In this document: positions 6,514-47,470 of the stretch, in pieces
How the letters are laid out: each line of letters begins with the position of its first letter
Numbering within the stretch: the stretch's first letter is position 1
From: an uncultured Prevotella sp.
GTDB taxonomy: Bacteria; Bacteroidota; Bacteroidia; Bacteroidales; Bacteroidaceae
Direction: 5' to 3'
DNA: 64,000 nucleotides
NCBI GenBank assembly: GCA_964433895.1
Contig: CAYSSU010000002.1
Coordinates: forward strand, 47,822 to 111,821
Notes under the pieces: generated by a model
Databases searched by the model: none
The model's input: only the letters and a program-made list of their open reading frames with translations
Told to the model about the DNA's origin: nothing
Translations under genes and position numbers: made by a program

Positions 6514-7695
6514 ATGGATAATACAGAAAGATTATGGAATAAGGATTATTGTAAGGTGATGACGGCAAACTTCATGATTTATTTTGCTTTCTATATACTT
6601 ACGCCTCTATTGCCGATATATCTTAGTGAGACATTTGGAGCTACAAAGGATGTAATAGGCATTGTTCTGTCAGGCTACACAATAGCAGCTTTGGTAATTC
6701 GCCCGTTTTCTGGTTTTGTGGTAGACAGTTTCGCACGTAAGAAAGTGTTGGTGATAAGTTTCTTTCTTTTCTTTATTTTTTTTGTAGGATATATTGCTGC
6801 TTCTACTTTGTTGATGTTTGCCATTGTAAGAACCCTACACGGAGTGCCTTTCGGGGCTGTGTCTGTGGCTAACAGCACTACTGCTATAGACGTGTTGCCG
6901 CCCGGCAGAAGAAATGAAGGTATAGGGTATTATGGACTTAGTAATAATCTGGCTATGGCAATAGCCCCTAGTATAGGAGTATATATTTATAAATATACGC
7001 AGAATTTTGCCATATTGTTTTGGATTGCTTTGATTATGGCATTCGTTGGATTGTTTGCTGCATCATCGGTTAATTTGCCGCAAAAGCAAATTGCGAGAAC
7101 AAGGAAGACTCTTTCTCTTGACCGTTTCTTCCTTACCCGTGCCTGGATGCTGGCTGTAAACATTGCGTTCTTTGGATTCTGCTTTGGAGTGTTGAGTAAT
7201 TATCTGGCAATATACAGTAAGGAAAGTCTCGGTATAACAGGAGGAACCGGTACATTCTTTGCTTTGCTTTCAATAGGACTTGTGGCTTCAAGGCTGCAGG
7301 GGGCAAAGGCTTTGAGGGAAGGTAAACTTACTCAGAATGCGGGGTGGGGAATACTTTTGTCTACAGTGGGATATATTCTCTTTGTGAGTTGCAACAATAT
7401 AGCGGCATATTATGTAAGTGCGCTGCTTGTAGGTTTGGGCAACGGACACATGTATCCCGCATTCCTCAATATGTTTATTTCCATAGCCCATCATGATGAG
7501 CGCGGTACGGCAAACTCATCTATATTGACTTCATGGGACTTGGGATTCGGACTTGGCATATTGCTTGGTGGTGTCGTGGCTGAACATTTGGGATACACAT
7601 CTGCATTCTGGATGGTTGCTGCAATACAGGCAACGGGAGCTGTGTTATTCTTTGCTGCTTCCCGTAATTTCTTTCTTGCCCGTATCGTGAAGTGA
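6514..7695 (+). CDS. MFS transporter
   Basis: 393 aa with about 12 predicted TM segments. MFS loop motif GFVVDSFARKKVL between TM2 and TM3. Confidence 0.85.
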   Translation: MDNTERLWNKDYCKVMTANFMIYFAFYILTPLLPIYLSETFGATKDVIGIVLSGYTIAALVIRPFSGFVVDSFARKKVLVISFFLFFIFFVGYIAASTLLMFAIVRTLHGVPFGAVSVANSTTAIDVLPPGRRNEGIGYYGLSNNLAMAIAPSIGVYIYKYTQNFAILFWIALIMAFVGLFAASSVNLPQKQIARTRKTLSLDRFFLTRAWMLAVNIAFFGFCFGVLSNYLAIYSKESLGITGGTGTFFALLSIGLVASRLQGAKALREGKLTQNAGWGILLSTVGYILFVSCNNIAAYYVSALLVGLGNGHMYPAFLNMFISIAHHDERGTANSSILTSWDLGFGLGILLGGVVAEHLGYTSAFWMVAAIQATGAVLFFAASRNFFLARIVK

Positions 7696-8580
7696 TTTGC
7701 TCTTTATTACAAGCCATACGCCAGAGAATACAAGTATGATGGCTATTCCCTGCATGATTGTGAATACGCCTATGCCTGTGAGCAGGCTCACAGCAACAGA
7801 GACTATTGGCTGCACATAATTATATATACTCACAACGGTAGGACGGAGTACTTTCTGACCAACCATAGTGAGAATATAACTTACAAAGGTGCCGAAGAAT
7901 ACCACATAGCCGGCTTCCAGCCATGTCTTTGTGCTTATCTCGCTCCATGGTAAAGATGCCACATGAGCTCCGCTGAATGGCCATATAAGCAATACAGCCC
8001 ATAGAAACATCCACTTGTTTACAGTGAATACAGAATATTTCTTTATCAGTTTGTTGAACAATGAAAGATATAGGGCAAAAGACATCTGCGCACCAAGACA
8101 CATAAGGTCTCCGCGGATATCACCTACTTTGGCATTTACAGCTGCAGCACTTGAAAGTATAAGAATTACGGCTCCGCAACAGCCAATGAATACTCCCAGA
8201 GCTTTCTGTAATGTGATAGGCTCTTTGAGTATGAAAAACGACAGAACCATGGCAAAGATAGGCATGGAGGTGGTAACAATGCTGGCGTTGACCGGAGATG
8301 TGATGCTGAGACCTATGGTGAAAAGACATTGGTTACAGGTGAGACCAAATATGGCTGCACCGATAAACAATAGCTTGTCACGTAATGGCACGTGCTCGTG
8401 CTTTATGAAAAGTGACGTAATCCAAAAGAGTATGGCTCCGCCAAGAACACGGAATGAAACCATACTTATACCGTCTATGCCATGTGTCATGGCATCTTTG
8501 CCGAGTGGAGCCATTAATCCCCAGAAAAATTCGGCAGTGAACATGCTGAGATGAGCTTGCAGCGCTTTGTTGTTATTCAA
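7645..8580 (-). CDS. DMT superfamily (EamA-like) transporter
   Basis: 311 aa with 10 TM-like segments in two EamA-type halves. The 3' end overlaps the convergent MFS gene by 51 nt. Confidence 0.8.
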   Translation of the reverse strand: MNNNKALQAHLSMFTAEFFWGLMAPLGKDAMTHGIDGISMVSFRVLGGAILFWITSLFIKHEHVPLRDKLLFIGAAIFGLTCNQCLFTIGLSITSPVNASIVTTSMPIFAMVLSFFILKEPITLQKALGVFIGCCGAVILILSSAAAVNAKVGDIRGDLMCLGAQMSFALYLSLFNKLIKKYSVFTVNKWMFLWAVLLIWPFSGAHVASLPWSEISTKTWLEAGYVVFFGTFVSYILTMVGQKVLRPTVVSIYNYVQPIVSVAVSLLTGIGVFTIMQGIAIILVFSGVWLVIKSKSLHDTGKKEITGSSKE

Positions 8581-8591
8581 AAGAATACAAA

Positions 8592-9116
8592 TTATTTAAT
8601 TATTCTGTAATATCCTTCTTTACGAGGTTTCACTGTATGTGGATGAGCTGAGGCATAACCCAAGCTTATTGCACCTACTCCAATAATATTTTCAGGAAGA
8701 TTCCATTGTCTCAGCAATGCCTTGCCTTCTTCTGTTTCAAACATCTTGTCCTCACGGTTAATCCAGCAAGAAGCTAATCCTATGGAGTGGGCTGCAAGCA
8801 TCATATTGCCAATGACAAGGCTGCCGTCCTTTATGTTGTTATTCCAGTCTTTAGAGGAAAAAACCAGAACTATGGTAGGGGCTCCATAGTAAGGGTCAGA
8901 TTCAGTACCCATTATGCGCGCATTCTCTTTACGTAACCAGTCTGACTGTTCTTTGTTTTGTACGGCTACAATCCATGAGTCCTGTTTGCTCATGCCGTTT
9001 GCTGCCCATGTGCCGGCTTCGAGTACCGTATTCAGTTCTTCATCACTTATTTGTTCTTCTTTATAACGGCGGATACTGCGTCTTTCCCTTATAGTTTTTA
9101 ATACTTCGTTTTCCAT
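8592..9116 (-). CDS. Nitroreductase family protein
   Basis: N-terminal RRSIRRYKEEQISDEEL FMN-binding motif; ...WIVAVQN...GNMMLAAHSIGLASCWI. Start set at ATG 9116 (MENEVLK...) because the -7 box at 9144-9151 overlaps the longer ORF start at 9146. Confidence 0.85.
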   Translation of the reverse strand: MENEVLKTIRERRSIRRYKEEQISDEELNTVLEAGTWAANGMSKQDSWIVAVQNKEQSDWLRKENARIMGTESDPYYGAPTIVLVFSSKDWNNNIKDGSLVIGNMMLAAHSIGLASCWINREDKMFETEEGKALLRQWNLPENIIGVGAISLGYASAHPHTVKPRKEGYYRIIK

Positions 9117-9143
9117 TTCTGTTTGTTTTTTACAGTTTATCGG

Positions 9144-9151
9144 CAAAGGTA
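9144..9151 (-). promoter_or_regulatory. -7 promoter box TACCTTTG
   Basis: Lies 27 nt upstream of ATG 9116 on the minus strand. Confidence 0.55.
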
Positions 9152-9213
9152 ATCATCTTTAAGTTATTGACAAAATAATAGTTTGTTTTTATTTTGCCAG
9201 GTAACTGTTTTTA

Positions 9214-9377
9214 ATTACCTTTGAATAAGATAAGCTGCATTCGGAAATCCAAAGAAAAATAGATTTTCCTTTGCTATTTCACTCATTTGCATTACCTTTG
9301 AATAAGATAAGCTGCATTCGGAAATCCAAAGAAAAATAGATTTTCCTTTGCTATTTCACTCATTTGCATTACCTTTG
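9214..9377 (+). repeat. Perfect tandem direct repeat, 77-bp period (2 full units plus a 10-bp third start)
   Basis: Positions 9214-9300 are identical to 9291-9377 (87 nt read base by base). Each unit boundary carries ATTACCTTTG, so TACCTTTG -7 boxes fall at 9216, 9293 and 9370. Confidence 0.95.
9370..9377 (+). promoter_or_regulatory. Proximal -7 box TACCTTTG with TTTG -33 element 19 nt upstream
   Basis: TTTG-CTATTTCACTCATTTGCAT-TACCTTTG, 43 nt upstream of ATG 9421. An identical full promoter lies 77 bp upstream (9293-9300). Confidence 0.6.
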
Positions 9378-9420
9378 CGCATGAAAAACAAACTACTATT
9401 TAAATTTTAAAAAAAGGAAA

Positions 9421-10785
9421 ATGAGTTCTTTAACTATTGCGATTATCGTTGTGTTCGTAGTGGGCTATATTTTTATTGCCCTGGAGAGCATAACAAAAGT
9501 GAACAAGGCTGCCATAGCCTTGCTGATGTTTGTGGCTTGCTGGACACTGTTTATGGTGGAACCGGGAAGTTATATGACAGGTGTTACAGGCGATAACCTG
9601 ATAAATGAAGTCAGTGAAGCCATTGAACGGCATTTGGGCAGTACATCTACGACATTGTTTTTCCTTATGGGAGCTATGACAATTGTTGAGATTGTGGACC
9701 AGAATGGTGGTTTCAACTGGGTGCAGACGCGTATGGCTACAAAGAGCAAGCGTGGACTTCTGTGGAAGATAGCTTTTATGACTTTCTTTCTTTCTGCAAT
9801 ACTTGATAATCTTACCACAAGTATTGTGATGATAATGATTCTGCGAAAACTGGTTCATGACCATAAAGACCGCATCGTATATGCTTCTCTGGTCATAATC
9901 GCTGCAAATTCTGGTGGAGCGTTCTCACCGATAGGTGATGTCACTACTATTATGTTGTGGAATAAAGGTGTGATTACGGCACTTGGTGTGATGTCTGAAG
10001 TTTTCATTCCGTCAGTAATATCACTTGTAATACCGACGCTTATATTGCAGACACAGTTGAAGGGTGAGTTGGCTGCTGCACCAAAAGTGAAAGTGGATGA
10101 AAAGAAAACCACAGAACTGGAGTTCAGCAAAGGGCAGCGTAAAATGATATTTATTCTGGGTGTAGGCGGACTGATGTTTGTGCCTGTATTCAAGAGCATT
10201 ACACATCTGCCTCCGTTTGTAGGTATACTTCTTGTGCTTGGTGTCTTATGGACTGTTACAGAGGTATTCTACAGCAATTTGCATAACGGATATAGCAAAG
10301 GAACTTTTCAGAATCGAGTTACCAATTTGCTTTCTCATATAGATATGAGCACAATATTGTTCTTCCTCGGTATTCTTATGGCTGTGGCTTGTCTTGAAGA
10401 GGTTGGTGTACTGACATCTTTGGGAAAGGGACTCAATGAGACCTTCTGTGGAAACCATTATCTTGTTACGGGTATTATAGGTATAATGTCAAGTATTGTA
10501 GACAATGTGCCTTTGGTGGCAGGCTGTATGGGCATGTATCCTGTAGCGCCGACAGGTGATATGGCAATAGATGGAATCTTCTGGCAATTGCTGGCTTATT
10601 GTGCCGGTGTCGGTGGCAGTATGCTTATTATCGGCAGTGCTGCCGGAGTTGTGGTGATGGGACTTGAGAGAATTACCTTCGGATGGTATATGAAAAAAAT
10701 AAGTTGGATTGCCTTTGTAGGTTATGCTGCCGGTATTCTTTCTTATTGGATAATAAGAACTTTTATATTTACAACACCTATTTGA
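9421..10785 (+). CDS. nhaD: Na+/H+ antiporter NhaD / ArsB-NhaD permease family
   Basis: 454 aa polytopic protein. Conserved blocks FFLSAILDNLTTSIVM, ANSGGAFSPIGDVTTIMLW, SSIVDNVPLVA. Confidence 0.85.
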   Translation: MSSLTIAIIVVFVVGYIFIALESITKVNKAAIALLMFVACWTLFMVEPGSYMTGVTGDNLINEVSEAIERHLGSTSTTLFFLMGAMTIVEIVDQNGGFNWVQTRMATKSKRGLLWKIAFMTFFLSAILDNLTTSIVMIMILRKLVHDHKDRIVYASLVIIAANSGGAFSPIGDVTTIMLWNKGVITALGVMSEVFIPSVISLVIPTLILQTQLKGELAAAPKVKVDEKKTTELEFSKGQRKMIFILGVGGLMFVPVFKSITHLPPFVGILLVLGVLWTVTEVFYSNLHNGYSKGTFQNRVTNLLSHIDMSTILFFLGILMAVACLEEVGVLTSLGKGLNETFCGNHYLVTGIIGIMSSIVDNVPLVAGCMGMYPVAPTGDMAIDGIFWQLLAYCAGVGGSMLIIGSAAGVVVMGLERITFGWYMKKISWIAFVGYAAGILSYWIIRTFIFTTPI

Positions 10786-10813
10786 CGATATAAGTAATTC
10801 GTTATTTGAAAAA

Positions 10814-10857
10814 AGTTAAGACTGATAAATCAATTACATGAAATATCAGTCTTAACT
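10814..10857. terminator. Bidirectional intrinsic terminator between convergent nhaD and cysK
   Basis: 14-bp arms AGTTAAGACTGATA / TATCAGTCTTAACT, flanked by an A-run and a T-run. Confidence 0.8.
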
Positions 10858-10892
10858 TTTTTATTTTTTCAGTACATAATGTAGATTATGTA

Positions 10893-11840
10893 TTATAGGG
10901 GATATTCTTCGAAAGCATAGAGTACGGTGCTTAGATATCTTTCTCCCGTATCAGGAAGCAAAGCTACAACAAGTTTGCCCTTGTTTTCCGGACGTGCTGC
11001 AACTTCGGCTGCTGCAAATGCTGCTGCACCGGACGAGATACCTACAAGCAGACCTTCCTGCTGTGCCAGTTGACGACCTGCCAGAATGGCGTCATCATTG
11101 TCTATATCCAGTACTTCATCAATTACGGCTGCATCGTATGTCTTTGGAATGAAACCGGCACCTATGCCCTGAATCTTGTGAGGACCGCTTTTGCCGCCGT
11201 TGAGAACAGGAGATGTTGCTGGTTCTGCTGCTATAATCTTAACATTGGGATTTTGTTCCTTAAGATATTTTCCTATACCGGAAATAGTACCGCCTGTGCC
11301 AACTCCGGCAATGAAAATGTCTACTTTACCGTCTGTGTCTTTCCATATTTCAGGACCTGTGGTTTCATAGTGGTTACGAGGGTTGGCAGGATTGTCAAAC
11401 TGTCCGAGGATAATGCTGCCCGGAATACTGTCGCGCAATTCTTCGGCGGCTTTTATGGCTCCGGTCATGCCGTCACGTCCATTTGTCAGTTTCACTTCGG
11501 CACCGTAGGCTTTTACCAGATTGCGTCGTTCTATACTCATCGTCTCTGGCATTGTAAGGATTAGATGATAACCCTTGACGGCAGATATCAGAGCCAGACC
11601 GACACCGGTGTTGCCACTTGTAGGCTCTATAATAGTTGCTCCAGGCTTAAGTTTGCCTTTTTTCTCAGCGTCTTCAATCATGGCAAATGCAATACGGTCT
11701 TTTACACTGCCACCGGGGTTGAATGATTCTACTTTTGCAATTATTGGTGTCTTCAGCCCTTTAGAGGCGGAATATTTGTTAAGCTCCACAAGTGGAGTAT
11801 TACCGATAAGTTCGGTAAGATTTTTAGCAATTTTTGTCAT
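10893..11840 (-). CDS. cysK: Cysteine synthase A (O-acetylserine sulfhydrylase)
   Basis: 315 aa. PLP-lysine motif [15 protein letters not shown] loop, [10 protein letters not shown]. Confidence 0.95.
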
Positions 11841-11860
11841 GATGTTATAATTTAATTTTG

Positions 11861-13156
11861 TTATTTTACGTAACTGAATGCTTCGTCAAGGGCATCAATG
11901 AGGTCTTCAACGTTTTCTGTTCCGATGCTCAGACGTATTGTTGAAGGATACAGATGCTGGTCTTCAAGTTCTTTAGGAGACAGTTGGGAGTGAGTAGTTG
12001 TTGCAGGATGTATAACGAGTGACTTTACATCTGCCACATTGGCAAGCAATGAGAATATTCGCAGATGGTCTATGAACTCCCATGCTTCTTCCTGCCCTCC
12101 CTTGATGTCGAATGTGAAGATAGAGCCTGCACCGTTTGGATACAACTTCTTGTATAGCTCATGGTCTGGATGTGAAGCTACAGCAGGATGGTTGACATTC
12201 TTTACCTTAGGGTGCTTTTGCAGATAATCCACAATCTTAAGTGCGTTTTCTACGTGGCGCTCTACGCGGAGACTTAATGTTTCAAGACCTTGCAGCAGAA
12301 TCCATGCGTTGAATGGGCTAATGGTAGCACCTGTGTCACGGAGTATGACTGCGCGGATACGTGTCACGAAGGCTGCTTTACCTGCAACATCAGCAAAAAT
12401 CGCGCCATGATATGAAGGTTCTGGTTTTCCCAAAGTAGGGAATAGGTCGGCATTGGCTTTCCAGTCGAAGTTTCCTCCGTCAACGATTACACCACCGAGG
12501 CTGCTTCCATGACCACCGATGAACTTAGTTGCGCTATGTACCACGATGTCAGCTCCATGTTCTATAGGACGTATCAGATATGGTGTACCGAATGTGTTGT
12601 CTATTATTAGTGGCAAGCGGTGCCGGTGAGCAATTTCTGCCCATTTGTCAATATCGGTAACATCTGAATTAGGATTGCCGAAAGTTTCAGCATACAGCAC
12701 ACGTGTTTCTGGCTTTATGGCTGCCTCTATGGCTGCATAGTCGTTGTAGTCAACAAAAGTGTGGGTGATGCCAAGATTAGAGAATGTATGCTCTATAAGG
12801 TTTGTTGTTCCGCCATATACATTTTTTGCTGCTACGATATGTTGACCGGAAACAAGTATGTTTTCTAGAGCATAAGTTACAGCTGCTGCGCCAGAAGCTA
12901 CAGCCAGACCGGCTACACCGCCTTCTAGAGCTGCAACACGATCTTCGAATACTCCTTGAGTTGAATTAGTAAGACGCCCATATATATTGCCGGCATCACG
13001 GAGCCCGAAGCGGTCGGCTGCATGTTGAGAATTACGGAATACGTAACTTGTTGTCTGGTATATTGGAACTGCACGTGAATCTGTTGTCGGGTCTGCCTGT
13101 TCCTGACCTACGTGAAGTTGAAGTGTCTCGAAATGAAGTTTCTTTTCTGTACTCAT
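11861..13156 (-). CDS. metY: O-acetylhomoserine aminocarboxypropyltransferase/sulfhydrylase (Cys/Met PLP family)
   Basis: 431 aa. [14 protein letters not shown]-terminus. PLP site [11 protein letters not shown]. Lies 20 nt upstream of cysK on the same strand. Confidence 0.92.
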
Positions 13157-13204
13157 AATCTATATCCTTTCTTTTATAAGTTTATTGTTTCTTGTTTACA
13201 TCTG

Positions 13205-13212
13205 CAAAGTTA
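13205..13212 (-). promoter_or_regulatory. -7 promoter box TAACTTTG for metY-cysK
   Basis: Lies 48 nt upstream of ATG 13156 on the minus strand. Confidence 0.55.
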
Positions 13213-13366
13213 CGGCAAAAATGAATGGTATGAAATCGCATATTTGGGGCATTTGGCATACCACATTTGTGGTATATGATGTTTTTTGAGGTTAATAAAT
13301 AAGAAAAAAGGAAATAAAGTACAATAAATTTGACTTTCAGGACTTGCAGATTAACTATATAATACT

Positions 13367-13374
13367 TATATTTG
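13367..13374 (+). promoter_or_regulatory. -7 promoter box TATATTTG for the ATPase/DUF4435 pair
   Basis: Lies 22 nt upstream of ATG 13397. Confidence 0.5.
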
Positions 13375-13396
13375 TGGAAAAATAAAATAAGTAATT

Positions 13397-14212
13397 ATGC
13401 AGAAGTATGCTGATTATATAGAACAGATAGAGATAGACTCTCTCTGGAGTGGTACAAAACATATCATCTGGAATCTGGACCGCAAAGTGAATATACTTAG
13501 TGGAGTGAATGGTGTGGGAAAAAGTACTATATTAAATAAGGTGGTGAAGAGTGTAGCTTGCAATGGCGAATTTCCCAGTCATCTGCTTAAAGGAGTACAC
13601 TTGAAAGTGTATCCGGAAGATGCCAAATGGATTCGGTTTGACGTTATAAGAAGCGTCGACCGTCCGTTGCTTAATAGCAGTATTGTGGAAAAAATGGATA
13701 TGAGTCTCGCCACAGAACTGGATTGGCAATTATTTCAGTTGCAGCGTAAATATCTTGATTATCAGGTGAACATTGGCAATCGCATTATTTCTGCATTGCA
13801 GAGTGGTGAGCCTGATGCTGCCGTGAAAGCCCAGAAACTTAGTGAACCGAAGAAACTTTTTCAGGATATGCTTGATAATCTGTTCAATGATACAGGAAAA
13901 ACTATTGTACGCACTGAAAATGAAATCAGATTCTTGCAGATGGGAGAGGTGCTGGTCCCATATCAACTGTCGGCAGGAGAAAAGCAAATGCTTGCTATTC
14001 TGCTGACTATGCTTGTGGAAGACAATTTGCCATATATGCTGTTTATGGATGAACCGGAGATAAGTTTGCACTTTGAATGGCAGAAACAGCTTATAGGACT
14101 GATATTGAAACTGAATCCTAATGTGCAGCTTATCATGACTACGCATAGTCCGGCTGTTGTCATGGATGGATGGACGGACAAAGTGACAGAGGTTACAGAT
14201 ATTACAGTTTAG
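13397..14212 (+). CDS. Small ABC-type (AAA_21/23-like, SMC/RecF-style) ATPase; AriA-like partner of a DUF4435 protein
   Basis: 271 aa. Walker A GVNGVGKST (13502-13528, K42). ABC signature LSAGEKQ (from 13967). Walker B LFMDEPEISLH (D218 E219). H-loop TTHSP (H250). A short helical insert of about 60 aa separates Walker A from the signature. Confidence 0.8.
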   Translation: MQKYADYIEQIEIDSLWSGTKHIIWNLDRKVNILSGVNGVGKSTILNKVVKSVACNGEFPSHLLKGVHLKVYPEDAKWIRFDVIRSVDRPLLNSSIVEKMDMSLATELDWQLFQLQRKYLDYQVNIGNRIISALQSGEPDAAVKAQKLSEPKKLFQDMLDNLFNDTGKTIVRTENEIRFLQMGEVLVPYQLSAGEKQMLAILLTMLVEDNLPYMLFMDEPEISLHFEWQKQLIGLILKLNPNVQLIMTTHSPAVVMDGWTDKVTEVTDITV

Positions 14213-14279
14213 CATTGAATGTTTTGCTATAGATAATGTGTTGTGAATCTTTAAATAATTTATTGTGTAGTTTTAGATA

Positions 14280-15272
14280 ATGTCAAACAGACTTATAAAT
14301 AATATAACATCCGGATATTTTGAAGCTGCCAACAGAATGACTTCAAAACAGACAAGGCGCAGAATCGTTGCTTATGTGGAAAGCTATGATGATGTGTTTT
14401 TCTGGCGTACCATATTGTCTAATTTTGAAGATAAGACTCGTTACTTTGAAGTGGTATTGCCATCACATGACAATTATCTGGAAAGGGGTAAGAAAGCAGC
14501 CATAGCTGGACTTATAAATGGTGCCGGTAGGGATATGATAGCCTGTGTGGATGCAGATTATGACTATCTGATGCATGGAATTACCCATTCTTCAAGTTCG
14601 GTTCTCAATAATCCTTATGTTTTCCATACTTATGCTTATGCCATAGAGAACTGGCAGTGCTATGCGCCTTCTCTTCATACTGTGTGCGTGGCAATAACAC
14701 TTAATGACCATGATATATTTGATTTTGTGGGGTTCCTGACAAGATATTCTCAGATTATATATCCTTTGTTCGTGTGGCAGATATGGTATGCCAAACATGG
14801 GCGCCAGAGCGAATTTACTATATTGGACTTCAACAGAGTGGTAGACGTGCATACAGATATAAGGAATGTTGAAGATGCCATGGAAAGATTGGATATAAAG
14901 GTAAGACGTAAGGTAAAGGAACTTCGCAGAGAAAATCCTGAAAAATGGGACAGTTTGAACAATGTAAAAGAAGAGTTGAAAAGACTGGGAGTTACACCTG
15001 ATACAACATATCTGTATATTCAAGGACATAATCTGTTTAACAAAATAGTATCTCCACTTGTTGACCGCGTGTGCTCTTCTTTGTTTTCTGAGCGTCAGAA
15101 TGAAATAAAAACACATTCAAAGCATAGTGCACAGATGCAGACAGAGTTGTCTTGCTATGACAATAGTGTGGAGAGCGTAGTGGGAATGTTGAAAAAAAAT
15201 ACGGGCTATATGATGTCACCCGTATTCCTTAATATTTTCAGAGACCTTAAATGTATGTTTCCAGAAACTTGA
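14280..15272 (+). CDS. DUF4435 / Toprim-like (OLD-family nuclease-like) protein; AriB-like
   Basis: 330 aa. Toprim-style acidic motifs YVESYDDVFFW (E34), GKKAAI, ACVDADYDYL (D91/D93/D95), YAIENW. Lies 67 nt downstream of the ATPase gene on the same strand. Confidence 0.72.
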   Translation: MSNRLINNITSGYFEAANRMTSKQTRRRIVAYVESYDDVFFWRTILSNFEDKTRYFEVVLPSHDNYLERGKKAAIAGLINGAGRDMIACVDADYDYLMHGITHSSSSVLNNPYVFHTYAYAIENWQCYAPSLHTVCVAITLNDHDIFDFVGFLTRYSQIIYPLFVWQIWYAKHGRQSEFTILDFNRVVDVHTDIRNVEDAMERLDIKVRRKVKELRRENPEKWDSLNNVKEELKRLGVTPDTTYLYIQGHNLFNKIVSPLVDRVCSSLFSERQNEIKTHSKHSAQMQTELSCYDNSVESVVGMLKKNTGYMMSPVFLNIFRDLKCMFPET

Positions 15273-16209
15273 TTGTACCGTCTACATATATTTCTTTTGT
15301 AGTGGCAGGAATCAGGATGGATTCTCCTTCATGGAAGGTGATTTCATTGCCTTCATTGTCTTTGATTTTACCTTCTCCTTTCAAACCGATTAGAATGACG
15401 AAACTGTCTAATTCGCTATAGTCTATCGTCATAGACTTGTCAAGGTCATATACGGATGTATTGAAGTAATTGCAGTGAACGAGACTAACACCCTGGTCTT
15501 TTTCCTGTTTGTATGCTGTGCGATAGTCTTTCTCCACATTATAGTTTATACATTCTGCAGCCTCTTTAGTGTGCAATTGGCGATAGTTGCCGTTTTTGTC
15601 CTTGCGCTTGAAGTCGTAGATTCGGTATGTCACATCACTAGTCTGCTGAATTTCAGCCAGAAAACATCCTGTACCTATGCTGTGAATACGTCCTGCAGGC
15701 AAAAAGAAACAGTCACCCTCTTTAACGTTATATTCTGCCAGAGCATCTGTAATGGTATCATTTTCTACCATTTCTTTATATTGCTCAGGGGTGATTTCCA
15801 TTTTTAGTCCACTTCGCAATTTTGCGTCAGCATCACTGTTCATGATGTACCACATTTCTGTTTTGCCGCGTTCTTTACCCATGCGCTTTGCTATCTCGTC
15901 AGTAGGATGTACCTGAATGGACAGTTGCTGGCGTGCATCAATAAATTTGATAAGCAAAGGAAATTCATTGCCAAACCGTTTATAATTTTCATCTCCAAGA
16001 AGTTTGCCTTTTAGAATACTCACAACTTCATTAAGATTTTTACCGGCATATTCACCATCGGCAATTATGCTTTCGCTGCCTTTTACTCCGGAGATTTCCC
16101 AGCTTTCGCCTACGTTTTCTTGTTGAACATCAAGGTGCTTGAACGGAATGATTTTACTTCCACCCCAAAGGGTAGACTTAAGAATTGGTCTAAATTTTAT
16201 TGATTTCAT
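15247..16209 (-). CDS. manA: Mannose-6-phosphate isomerase, class I
   Basis: 320 aa. LWGGSKI, SIQVHPTD, KTEMWYI, AGRIHSIG metal/cupin motifs. The 3' end overlaps the DUF4435 gene by 26 nt. Confidence 0.9.
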   Translation of the reverse strand: MKSIKFRPILKSTLWGGSKIIPFKHLDVQQENVGESWEISGVKGSESIIADGEYAGKNLNEVVSILKGKLLGDENYKRFGNEFPLLIKFIDARQQLSIQVHPTDEIAKRMGKERGKTEMWYIMNSDADAKLRSGLKMEITPEQYKEMVENDTITDALAEYNVKEGDCFFLPAGRIHSIGTGCFLAEIQQTSDVTYRIYDFKRKDKNGNYRQLHTKEAAECINYNVEKDYRTAYKQEKDQGVSLVHCNYFNTSVYDLDKSMTIDYSELDSFVILIGLKGEGKIKDNEGNEITFHEGESILIPATTKEIYVDGTIKFLETYI

Positions 16210-19035: not shown

Positions 19036-20916
19036 TTAATTTATGATAGACAGTCTGATACTTTCATTGTCCAGACCAACAATCTGTCTTAATTCGTCTA
19101 TGGTTCCGTGTTCCACGAATTCGTCAGGTAGTCCCAGACGCTTTATTGTAGGAGTATATCCGTGGTCTGACATCCATTCAAGAACAGCACTACCCATACC
19201 TCCGTTTCTCACTCCGTCTTCAACGGTGATAATCTTTTGATATTTTTCTGCTACCTCTTTAAGTATATTGTTGTCAAGAGGCTTCAGAAATCTCATGTCA
19301 TAGTGTGCAGCTTCAGGAATGTCTTTTACCACATCGGCAACATCATTGCCAATCGGACCTATTGTTAAGACGGCAATATTTGTGCCATCTTTGAGTTTTC
19401 TGCCTGTACCTATTTCTATTTCTTCAAAATCACAATGCCAGTCTGTAAGTACTCCGCGTCCACGGGGATAGCGTATCACGAATGTTCCCTTACCCGGTAA
19501 TTGGGCTGTATACATAAGTTTTCTCAGTTCATGCTCATCCATAGGACTGGCGATTGTTAGATTTGGTATAGGACGCAATGCCGCCATATCGAAAGCCCCA
19601 TGATGTGTAGGTCCATCTTGCCCGACAAGTCCGGCGCGGTCAAGGCATAATACTACCGGTAGGTTGAGTATTGCCAGGTCATGAATAATATTGTCGTATG
19701 CCCGTTGTGCAAAAGCACTGTATATGTTGCAGAATGGCAGCAAACCGTCTTTTGCCATACCGCCAGAGAATGTTACCGCATGTTCTTCGGCAATGCCTAC
19801 ATCAAATACTCTGGTTGGCATCTCTTTTTGCATTATATTCATAGAGCAACCTGTGGGCATAGCTGGTGTTACGCCTACTATTTCTGTATTCTGTCTTGCC
19901 AGTTCCAAAAGAGTCTTTCCGAATACTTCCTGAAATTTAGGAGGCATATTCGTACAGTCTTGAATTTCGCGTTCTCCAGTTTCTGCATCAAACTTGCCGG
20001 GAGCATGCCACACGGTTGCGCTTCTTTCTGCAGGTTCGTACCCTTTGCCTTTTGTAGTATGCAGATGTAGAAGTTTGGGACCTTTCATGTTTTTGAGTTG
20101 TCTCAGTACACGAACCACTTCTTTAACATCGTGTCCGTCAAAAGGTCCAAAGTAACGGATGTTCATGCCTTCAAATATATTCTGCTGATGGCTTAAGGCA
20201 CTCTTCAGGGCATTGTTTAATCTTATTATGCCTTTGCGTCGGTTTTCATTTAGATAACCTTTTTGATGAAGCCATGTAGAAGCCTTGAACCGCAACTTGT
20301 TGTAGGTTTCGTTTGTGTCAAGATTAAGCAGATATTTTTCCATACCTCCTACGGCATGGTCGATAGACATATCATTATCATTGAGTATTATCAGAAGGTC
20401 ATTAGGAGTGCTAGACACATTATTAAGTCCTTCAAAGGCAAGTCCGCCACTCATGGCTCCGTCACCAATTACTGCAACGACATGACGTGATGGTCCTGTC
20501 TGGTCAAATCTGGCAGCTACTGCCATACCCAAAGCCGCAGATATTGAATTGCTTGCATGTCCACAGGTAAATGTATCATATTCACTTTCCAATGGAGTAG
20601 GAAATGGGCGAATACCTTTCAACTTGCGGTTAGTGCAAAACTTATCTCTACGGCCTGTAAGAATCTTGTGCCCGTAAGCCTGATGCCCAACGTCCCATAC
20701 AATACGGTCTTCTGGAGTGTTAAAAACGTAATGCAAAGCAACTGTGATTTCAACAACACCTAGGGATGACGCAAAATGACCGGGGTTCACGCTCACTTCG
20801 TCAATGATGTCTTCGCGTAGTTCTTTGCATATTTCCGGCAGTTGCTCAACGTTCAGCTTTCTAAGGTCGGCTGGGTATTTAATATTACTTAAAAGTCCAA
20901 ATTTCTTTTTATTCAT
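19036..20916 (-). CDS. dxs: 1-deoxy-D-xylulose-5-phosphate synthase
   Basis: TPP motif [31 protein letters not shown], transketolase-like C-terminus. Start set at ATG 20916 ([21 protein letters not shown]) because the -7 box at 20942-20949 lies inside the longer ORF. The stop abuts the trkA start. Confidence 0.93.
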
Positions 20917-20941
20917 CAACACTCGTGTATGATTATGGGGG

Positions 20942-20949
20942 CAAAGGTA
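20942..20949 (-). promoter_or_regulatory. -7 box TACCTTTG with TTTG 19 nt upstream (at the end of a T10 run)
   Basis: Lies 25 nt upstream of ATG 20916 on the minus strand. Confidence 0.6.
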
Positions 20950-21012
20950 CTTTAAAATAAGATAAGAACAAAAAAAAACACTAAAAAACTTGTTATGTTT
21001 CTTTTTTATTCC

Positions 21013-21020
21013 TATCTTTG
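21013..21020 (+). promoter_or_regulatory. -7 promoter box TATCTTTG
   Basis: Lies 32 nt upstream of ATG 21053. Confidence 0.6.
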
Positions 21021-21052
21021 TCATTAGAAAAACATTTTAAACAATTAACATT

Positions 21053-46543: not shown

Positions 46544-47470
46544 TTATAGAAGTCGCTTGTATCGGAGTATCCACCATGATAATCCTGATACAACGACTGA
46601 TATAACCATGGCAATTATGAATCCCCATGGACTACTCTCCATACCGTTTATAAGGTTCATTCCGAACATGGAGGCAATGAGAGTTGGGAACATCATGATG
46701 ATACTCACACTGGTGAGAGTACGCATGGTCGTGTTCATATTGTTGTTGATGATACTGGAATATGTGTCCATAGTGCTCTCCAGAATATCGGAGTAAATGG
46801 ATGTTGTTTCGCGGGCCTGAGTCATCTCAATACTTACATCTTCAATAAGGTCAGCGTCAAGTTCATCTACCTGTAGTTTGAACTTAAGTTTCTGTAGCAG
46901 ATTCTCGTTGCCACGAATTGATGTGATAAAGAATGTAAGGGAATCTTGTAGTCGGCTAAGCCCGATAAGACTCTCGTTGTTGACTCCTTGGTCAAGATTG
47001 TGCTTTGCTTTTTCTATGAGCGAGTTAATCTGCTTGAGTCGCTTCAGATACCACACGGCACTGGATAGGAAGAGACGGAAAATAAGATCAACATAATCTG
47101 TGAATCCTTCGCGTCGCTTCTGTTGATAAGATACGAAATCTATCATCATGTTGGTTTCGTAATAACATACAGTGATAGTGACATCACGCTTGTGAATGAT
47201 GCCGAGAGGTACTGTGGTGTAAGGTGTGCGTGAGCGTACTTCCTTGACGTATGGTATACGTAGTATTATGAGCATCCAACCGTCATCGTATTCATAACGT
47301 GCCCGCTCATCAGTATCGCTGATGTCAGACAAGAAGTAATCTGGTATGTGGAATGTATCTTCCAGAAATTCCTGATCTTCGTTCGTAGGGCATGTTACCT
47401 GCACCCAGCAATTTGGCTGCCACTCCTTGAGGGCGCTCAAATTCTCGCTAATATTCCAAAATGTTCTCAT
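46544..47470 (-). CDS. corA: CorA family magnesium/cobalt transporter
   Basis: 308 aa. Two C-terminal TM segments with the GMN signature (ASMFGMNL). Confidence 0.9.
   Translation of the reverse strand: MRTFWNISENLSALKEWQPNCWVQVTCPTNEDQEFLEDTFHIPDYFLSDISDTDERARYEYDDGWMLIILRIPYVKEVRSRTPYTTVPLGIIHKRDVTITVCYYETNMMIDFVSYQQKRREGFTDYVDLIFRLFLSSAVWYLKRLKQINSLIEKAKHNLDQGVNNESLIGLSRLQDSLTFFITSIRGNENLLQKLKFKLQVDELDADLIEDVSIEMTQARETTSIYSDILESTMDTYSSIINNNMNTTMRTLTSVSIIMMFPTLIASMFGMNLINGMESSPWGFIIAMVISVVVSGLSWWILRYKRLL

Follow-up and report, generated by a model that had tools for sequence, protein, structure and literature searches.

What is a gene pair resembling a phage defense system doing between core metabolic genes of a Prevotella chromosome, and how did it come to be there? 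The question is posed by a 64,000-nucleotide stretch of DNA from an uncultured Prevotella sp. (assembly GCA_964433895.1, contig CAYSSU010000002.1, positions 47,822 to 111,821; hereafter the window), in which two open reading frames (ORFs) follow each other on the forward strand. The first, gene A (13397 to 14212), encodes a 271-residue minimal AriA-like ABC ATPase of the AAA_21/AAA_15 class, and the second, gene B (14280 to 15272), encodes a predicted 330-residue Toprim nuclease of the DUF4435/AriB type, whose C-terminal domain is helical. A spacer of 67 nt (14213 to 14279) separates them, and B overlaps by 26 nt (15247 to 15272) the 3' end of a convergent manA-like ORF on the reverse strand (15247 to 16209; mannose-6-phosphate isomerase, 320 residues). 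We conclude that the pair is probably a PARIS-family (AriA/AriB-like, OLD class 4-like) module of the smallest known size class, chromosomally fixed and vertically inherited in Prevotellaceae, with orthologues in Bacteroidaceae. Its assignment to the PARIS family can be made with confidence. On whether it also works in a PARIS-like manner, by ATPase-gated release of a Toprim RNase, analogy leaves the balance about even.

The family assignment is carried by profile matches to both proteins. The ATPase scores 67.5 bits against AAA_21 (2.8e-18) and 55.4 bits against AAA_15 (1.1e-14), and SMC_N also matches; the nuclease scores 172.4 bits against DUF4435 (1.8e-50, model positions 1 to 231 of 238) and matches no other Pfam family. 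The published detection rule for PARIS asks for adjacent genes with AAA_15 at 32 bits or more or AAA_21 at 27 bits or more, together with DUF4435 at 27 bits or more (Rousset 2022, PMC9122126); all three scores here lie above these values, for genes on the same strand and 67 nt apart. The PADLOC AriA model PDLC04164 (253 positions) matches the ATPase at 2.8e-52, with residues 6 to 270 on model positions 4 to 251, and the PADLOC AriB models PDLC02983 and PDLC04165 match the nuclease at 1.5e-58 and 1e-37, so an automated defense annotator would label the pair PARIS. PDLC04164 is a catalogue hidden Markov model that stands for no characterized system; it aligns short ATPases end to end (the Bacteroides finegoldii orthologue at 5.6e-58), whereas the longer plasmid, viral, and phage ATPases match it only in part. 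A sequence-only reading of this locus, made before any database search, had proposed an ABC ATPase with a DUF4435/Toprim partner in the manner of PARIS, and these matches bear it out. The two ORFs, the 67-nt gap, the manA overlap, the promoter-like box at 13367 to 13374, and every motif that it quoted are indeed present.

Related ATPases occur in other defense systems, and it is the partner that separates them from this pair. Septu and retron PtuA belong to the same AAA_15/AAA_21 ABC ATPase superfamily as A, but their partner is the HNH protein PtuB rather than a DUF4435/Toprim protein. Many PADLOC PtuA models match the C-terminal half of A, and the NCBIfam PtuA model gives it only 51.5 bits against a cutoff of 500. 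A Foldseek search with the AlphaFold2 model of A, which is of moderate quality (predicted local distance difference test [pLDDT] of 65.6), places PtuA chains first (about 3e-9) and AriA behind them (about 3e-7); such a model cannot tell AriA from PtuA affinity, and we used it for the superfamily and the hairpin described below only. Gabija GajA and P2 Old carry a fused Toprim_Old, AbiL has an RloB partner, and MADS3-4 is also of the OLD family, but none has a DUF4435 partner; OLD classes 1 to 3 (P2 Old, Gabija GajA, and the retron-associated class) are single fused polypeptides, whereas the window holds two ORFs. PADLOC GajA and ATPase-Toprim models match only the ATPase C terminus of A or its homologues. 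The possibility that A is an ABC transporter subunit failed, with 26.2 bits against ABC_tran, NCBIfam transporter matches all far under their cutoffs, and no permease gene adjoining A in the window's ORF table. NCBIfam contains no equivalog or housekeeping model for A or B, and PHROGs gave partial matches for the ATPase and none for B.

The reference for comparison is PARIS of Escherichia coli B185, carried on a P4-like satellite (PMC9122126; Burman 2024, PMC11464382; Deep 2024, PMC10802264; PDB 8ux9, 8v45-8v49). Like it, the pair is a two-gene operon in which an ABC ATPase precedes a DUF4435 Toprim nuclease, with full ATPase motifs and five acidic nuclease residues at the same spacing. E. coli AriA (464 residues, 8ux9/8v45) is also the best PDB sequence match of A (7e-11), in an alignment limited to the N-terminal P-loop and residues 191 to 262. 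Judged by its motifs, the ATPase has the complete ABC set and is catalytically competent. In the translation, the Walker A motif, or P-loop, GVNGVGKST occupies residues 36 to 44 (13502 to 13528), with K42 corresponding to AriA K39. The stretch from the ABC signature LSAGEKQ (191 to 197) to the Walker B motif LFMDEPE (215 to 221, with D218 and E219) lies at 13967 to 14059 and aligns with AriA residues 366 to 435, and the H-loop TTHSP (248 to 252) lies at 14138 to 14152. D218 and E219 correspond to the Walker B pair D392/E393 of AriA (PMC10802264, also the source for K39). Across 29 homologues reaching out to Rikenellaceae and an E. coli plasmid copy, the invariant residues are G36, N38, G39, G41, and K42 of Walker A; L191, S192, G194, E195, D218, E219, and P220 of the signature and Walker B; and T249, H250, S251, and P252 of the H-loop.

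What sets A apart is its size. The sequence-only reading had judged it much shorter than characterized AriA, which is correct (271 versus 464 residues), and the difference falls between Walker A and the signature, which are 147 residues apart in A and roughly 320 in E. coli AriA. There, the coiled coil of AriA is a four-helix bundle enlarged by IS1 (122 to 180) and IS2 (242 to 289), and its coiled-coil (CC) interface builds the hexamer and binds Ocr (PMC10802264). In the AlphaFold2 model of A, a two-helix hairpin at about residues 101 to 166 (13697 to 13894) stands in for the bundle together with IS1 and IS2; its helices (107 to 134 and 141 to 164) are predicted at a pLDDT of 84 to 91, and A has no other insert. 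The earlier suggestion that most of the coiled-coil scaffold is missing agrees with both the model and the spacing. Measured across 157 homologues, the spacing falls into three size classes: 132 to 158 residues in Bacteroidales chromosomal pairs (exactly 147 in 23/23 diverse Prevotellaceae), 201 to 225 in pairs on plasmids and viral contigs, and 260 to 350 in the classical long AriA of viral contigs and phage satellites. By this measure of sequence, A belongs to the smallest class. An exhaustive homologue search gave, at E <= 1e-30, 263 clusters (50% identity), whose full-length members have 255 to 350 residues. The first hairpin helix is conserved like the catalytic core (major-residue frequency of 0.91 versus 0.88 to 0.92), and only the hairpin tip, the second helix, and residues 90 to 100 are looser.

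The nuclease carries an intact Toprim metal site of five acidic residues. Its predicted catalytic core (residues 26 to 130; 14355 to 14669) contains E34 and D38 in YVESYDD (14379-14393), D91-x-D93-x-D95 in CVDADYDY (14550-14564), and E123 in YAIENW (14646-14648). Conservation of the acidic site was assessed over 24 to 45 sequences. Among Prevotellaceae, Bacteroides, Phocaeicola, and the E. coli plasmid copy, E34, D38, G70, K71, D91, D93, D95, T117, Y120, E123, G249, and H250 are invariant; in a broader set with viral-contig homologues (15 to 33% identity), E34, D38, D91, D93, and D95 remain invariant and E123 nearly so. The active site of AriB consists of E26, D30, D88, E90, and E122 (Deep et al., PMC10802264), and its spacing (4, about 57 to 62, 2, about 32) is reproduced by E34, D38, D91, D93, and E123 of B, a correspondence drawn by motif and profile alignment and not by superposition on solved AriB. 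An hhalign comparison with the DUF4435 protein of a P2-like phage hotspot (probability of 88%, E of 2.8e-6) pairs YVESYDD, CVDADYDY, and YAIEN of B with YVEGPDD, ACDADFTT, and HSIEN. The AlphaFold2 model of B (pLDDT of 70.8) is alpha/beta in its N-terminal half, where the Toprim part is poorly predicted, and helical from about residue 138; E. coli AriB has the same build, a Toprim N-terminal and a helical C-terminal domain.

Outside the core, two parts of the nuclease stand out. The helix modeled at residues 11 to 21, SGYFEAANRMT (14310 to 14342), may be what docks B on the head-head interface of the ATPase; four of its residues (S11, Y13, A16, and N18) do not vary among 45 sequences. The most variable segment is helical and spans residues 171 to 235 (14790 to 14984), where none of the 65 positions is invariant and the mean major-residue frequency is 0.50. 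Its ratio of nonsynonymous to synonymous substitution rates (dN/dS) of 0.115 is the highest of any segment and still purifying, with dS near saturation. The C-terminal tail is variable too, and the Toprim core is conserved.

A and B are likely cotranscribed, since the 67-nt spacer contains no match to TAnnTTTG, the Bacteroidota -7 box, in a motif scan. Upstream of A, the scan places the box proposed for the operon, TATATTTG, at 13367 to 13374 and a second candidate, TAAATTTG, at 13325 to 13332, both on the forward strand. The window contains 102 matches to this common 8-mer where 67 are expected, so a single match ahead of A says little by itself. The promoter call becomes reasonable because the box, with a T-rich tract before it, is kept upstream of A in 25/25 diverse orthologous loci, mostly 26 to 52 nt ahead of the ATG. 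The spacer between the two genes ranges among orthologues from -16 to 190 nt, with 16 to 40 nt the commonest. Rfam and tRNA scans yielded no RNA element tied to the pair.

The second half of our question, how the pair came to be where it is, is answered by its relatives: it is old, vertically inherited, and tightly conserved in Prevotellaceae and Bacteroidaceae chromosomes. Few assemblies contain the exact A protein, but 368 species-level genomes contain a relative at 75 to 86% identity. In 87/87 intact loci, the gene immediately after A is B, and the pairwise identities of the two proteins correlate (r = 0.96). The pair adjoins manA-trkH-trkA-dxs in the Segatella copri complex, S. hominis, S. 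sinensis, S. bryantii, S. baroniae, and rumen Prevotella; it also occurs in Hallella, where manA was not found in the loci examined. Of 65 species-level loci whose downstream sequence runs to 5 kb or more, manA follows in convergent orientation in 35, and in orthologous loci the stop codons of B and manA are separated by -6 to 3847 nt (median, 118). Anchoring the comparison on manA instead, we found the pair in 10/10 places of the S. bryantii lineage; in one lineage (P0520), rml genes are beside manA in its place, and the pair has been lost or has moved. In Prevotella sp. A2931 (GCA_003043925.1, 6199 to 10963), the pair is bracketed by two DDE_Tnp_1/DUF4372 transposase genes, one of which separates it from manA, an arrangement that points to insertion sequence (IS) elements entering the junction without disrupting the pair.

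Divergence of the pair keeps pace with that of its neighbors. The identity of A correlates with those of manA, trkH, and trkA (r = 0.92 to 0.95); over the same genome pairs, identity is about 78% for A, 71% for manA, 67% for trkH, and about 51% for B, and the conservation of A equals that of trkA and cysK. The dN/dS values are 0.043 for A and 0.073 for B, with 0.062 for manA, 0.035 for trkA, and 0.043 for trkH; the nuclease evolves about twice as fast as the ATPase. Orthologues in Bacteroides finegoldii and Phocaeicola massiliensis (A, 55 to 60% identity; B, 45 to 48%) lie beside a DMT/EamA gene, and the window has an EamA/DMT transporter gene (7645 to 8544, reverse strand; Pfam EamA) that is 47 to 48% identical to it. 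Divergence of the pair therefore matches that of a chromosomal gene linked to it. In S. copri, S. bryantii, B. finegoldii, and P. massiliensis, the gene immediately upstream of the pair is EamA, which here is about 5 kb off, with genes for a nitroreductase, a CitMHS-family transporter, cysK, and metY in between (8592 to 13156), which points to a lineage-specific rearrangement of an ancestral EamA-A-B neighborhood.

Phage genomes, viral contigs, and genuine plasmids contain no close relative of the pair, the best well-covered viral-contig matches being 36 to 45% identical. Distant short-ATPase and DUF4435 pairs with the same gene order and invariant residues do occur on plasmids, on viral contigs, and in a P2-like phage. 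They are carried by 5.3-kb mobilizable ColE1-type E. coli plasmids (pSE11-5 type), by at least 20 IMG/VR contigs, and by Escherichia phage vB_EcoM-813R9 (ON470620.1, 2095 to 4198), in which a 419-residue ATPase and a 283-residue DUF4435 protein lie between gpV (baseplate) and gpS (tail). The intermediate plasmid and IMG/VR pairs are the closest relatives outside Bacteroidales (A, 27 to 45% over the best segment; B, about 17 to 33%), and their ATPases are longer than A (about 325 to 355 versus 271 residues; spacing of 201 to 225 versus 147). The wider family thus has the usual ecology of defense genes, and the Bacteroidales clade is the exception: E. coli PARIS is satellite or phage borne, and PARIS is typically found in phages, satellites, and defense islands with a patchy distribution, whereas the window pair is chromosomal, syntenic, and vertical.

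Two database records met along the way deserve mention on their own account. The vB_EcoM-813R9 pair is of PARIS type and sits in a known P2 hotspot, and its record reads "putative enzyme with ATPase activity" and "hypothetical protein." Two "plasmid" copies of the Bacteroidales pair in PLSDB, NZ_OY725943.1 (B. finegoldii, 34.8 kb) and OY726067.1 (P. massiliensis, 140 kb), were rejected as evidence of mobility: they carry chromosomal genes (meaB, a TonB-dependent receptor, and alpha-2-macroglobulin), are typed as non-mobilizable, and look like circularized or misassigned chromosomal or assembly fragments. Plasmid matches in PLSDB need checking.

How might such a pair act? In E. coli, an AriA6:AriB3 propeller of about 425 kDa sequesters AriB; once triggered, PARIS cleaves tRNA and aborts the infection or arrests growth. 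By analogy, ATP-engaged head-to-head dimers of A would hold B inactive through its conserved N-terminal helix, which may be equivalent to the docking helix on the ATPase heads and, as modeled, is compatible with head-head docking in the AriA6:AriB3 manner. A signal and ATP hydrolysis would then free B, which would dimerize through its helical domain and cleave RNA, most likely tRNA, and translation would stop. Because A lacks the four-helix bundle, the hexameric propeller and an Ocr-type trigger site cannot be assumed, and both the oligomeric state and the trigger are expected to differ from those in E. coli. Given that no surface of A evolves fast, what triggers the pair is probably some conserved aspect of infection or stress rather than a fast-changing phage protein.

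Several observations weigh against reading the pair as a PARIS-like defense module. Family-wide fixation, housekeeping-level constraint, and the lack of a variable sensor surface are atypical of defense systems. Per-position conservation revealed no variable patch on A, in contrast to classical AriA, whose pore residues thought to recognize triggers are poorly conserved, and the slowly evolving partner in the window is the ATPase, a further difference from E. coli PARIS. With the trigger-binding CC interface of E. coli AriA absent, the release mechanism is extrapolated. Where AriB has R28, which contacts the RNA backbone, B has Y36, and the substrates of the two nucleases may accordingly differ. 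Neither phmmer with B nor a Bacteroidales B profile nor a broad DUF4435 profile retrieved the solved AriB chains; two DUF4435 proteins from long-AriA or phage systems, used as queries, likewise retrieved none. Foldseek with the model of B reached only noise level in the PDB (best E of 0.65), which we do not count against the Toprim assignment because the Toprim half is poorly modeled. Finally, the literature that we searched holds no phage challenge or toxicity data for the Bacteroidales clade.

We also have to consider that the pair is a domesticated, order-wide core module, either an ATP-gated Toprim RNase acting in the metabolism of the cell's own RNA or in translational arrest induced by stress, or a germline-fixed innate immune sensor of some conserved consequence of infection rather than of a variable phage protein. 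This seems to us a serious but minority possibility; its signaling would differ from that of E. coli PARIS, as the coiled-coil bundle is missing and the ATPase has no arms-race signature. The narrower version, in which the RNase processes rRNA or tRNA or shuts down translation under stress and the pair never was, or no longer is, antiphage, is somewhat less probable again. It would account for the order-level conservation and synteny, for dN/dS values of 0.04 to 0.07 like those of trkA, trkH, and manA, and for the host-adapted codon usage and conserved standard promoter. It would also fit with an insert length exactly constant in 23/23 diverse Prevotellaceae, an ATPase without a hypervariable surface, and the lack of close relatives in phages, viral contigs, and true plasmids. 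A Toprim RNase with a housekeeping role also has a precedent, since the AriB catalytic site is closest to that of RNase M5, the Toprim rRNA maturase of Firmicutes (PMC10802264, PMC12409363), a likeness drawn for AriB; RNase M5, however, acts as a monomer, its partner being ribosomal protein uL18 rather than an ABC ATPase. What speaks against domestication is that all related systems of known biology are defense systems and that the nearest out-groups are on mobile elements. In addition, the pair is missing beside manA in at least one lineage, about half of the species do not keep the synteny, PARIS has been reported in only about 20% of gut metagenome-assembled genomes (MAGs) (PMC10924106), and NCBIfam has no housekeeping model for either protein.

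It is improbable, more so than domestication, that the pair is a selfish addiction (toxin-antitoxin [TA]) module without benefit to the host, kept because loss of the antitoxin ATPase unleashes the nuclease. E. coli PARIS does act as a type II TA system, with AriA as antitoxin and chaperone (PMC10802264), the gene order is invariant and the linkage tight, and the Pfam text for AAA_21 reads "putative AbiEii toxin, Type IV TA system." Addiction, however, leaves unexplained both the purifying selection across the two whole proteins over genus and family divergence and the single-copy syntenic position, and chromosomal TA modules are usually patchy and decaying.

Very unlikely is a recent, horizontally acquired defense islet between core metabolic genes, as the sequence-only reading had proposed: the pair is the sole plus-strand unit between metY and manA, with AT-rich flanking intergenic DNA, IS elements surround it in A2931, and its upstream flank varies in S. 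copri (Fic, AAA_14/DUF4143, and SusCD), but its GC content, GC content at third codon positions (GC3), and codon usage are inside the window range, many species and genera carry it at this junction, its divergence follows that of housekeeping neighbors, and phage, viral-contig, and true plasmid collections hold no close relative. Compared with 50 ORFs of the window, A has a GC content of 0.410 (z of -0.23) and B of 0.384 (z of -1.18), GC3 is ordinary in both, and codon usage fits the window above average. The AT richness relative to neighbors that the same reading had noticed does not hold for the genes; the signal comes from intergenic DNA at 13000 to 13500. Host-like composition, synteny, codivergence, and housekeeping-level purifying selection all speak against an islet, and conservation of the locus across the family with housekeeping-like composition, which had been named beforehand as an outcome that would count against it, is largely what we found.

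The kind of system is already known. PARIS has been reported to be abundant in gut Bacteroidales and present in about 20% of gut MAGs (PMC10924106), it has been listed among the predicted, transcriptionally active defense systems of a Bacteroides thetaiotaomicron strain (PMC12135933), and the short ATPase is modeled in PADLOC. Of the earlier description of the ATPase as a minimal, undescribed variant, "undescribed" is only partly right: our literature search found no experimental work on the short form, but PADLOC v2 already holds a fitting 253-position AriA model, and PARIS had been reported from gut Bacteroidales in abundance. In the literature searched, we found recognized neither a distinct minimal size class without the trigger-binding bundle nor the vertical, syntenic inheritance of the pair across Prevotellaceae and Bacteroidaceae under housekeeping-level constraint.

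PARIS is among the best-understood "anti-anti-restriction" systems, and the mechanistic work has all been done on one 464-residue AriA from an E. coli satellite. In lineages abundant in the human gut and the rumen (Segatella/Prevotella; orthologues also exist in Bacteroides and Phocaeicola), PARIS takes a pared-down form, with ATPase heads and a nuclease active site but no hexamer-forming, Ocr-binding bundle, and it has been passed on in the manner of a housekeeping gene. If it serves in defense, nature would have supplied a minimal model for learning on which parts of AriA the sequestration and release of the nuclease depend, and what is detected by a sensor that evolves slowly; if it does not, it would be an example of a domesticated defense module. 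Counts of PARIS in gut metagenomes may largely record a pair handed down vertically within Bacteroidales rather than a mobile defensome, and, should the pair prove domesticated, much of the "PARIS in 20% of gut MAGs" would be one vertically inherited gene pair rather than mobile immunity.

Three further features of the window lie outside the pair. The CorA Mg2+ transporter gene (46544 to 47470, reverse strand) is the strongest codon-usage outlier (codon log-likelihood z of -3.9; GC3 z of +2.4) and, if any gene of the window was acquired horizontally, is the candidate, rather than A and B. A perfect 77-bp tandem repeat (9214 to 9377; 2.1 copies, 100% match), each copy bearing a -7-like promoter box, TACCTTTG (at 9216, 9293, and 9370), lies directly upstream of the CitMHS-family transporter gene (9421 to 10785, forward strand) and may be a duplicated promoter region. 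The dxs ORF (19036 to 21024, reverse strand), at 662 residues as listed, is 11 to 30 residues longer than most full-length orthologues (632 to 651 residues), and its true start is probably the internal methionine of MNKKKFGLL.

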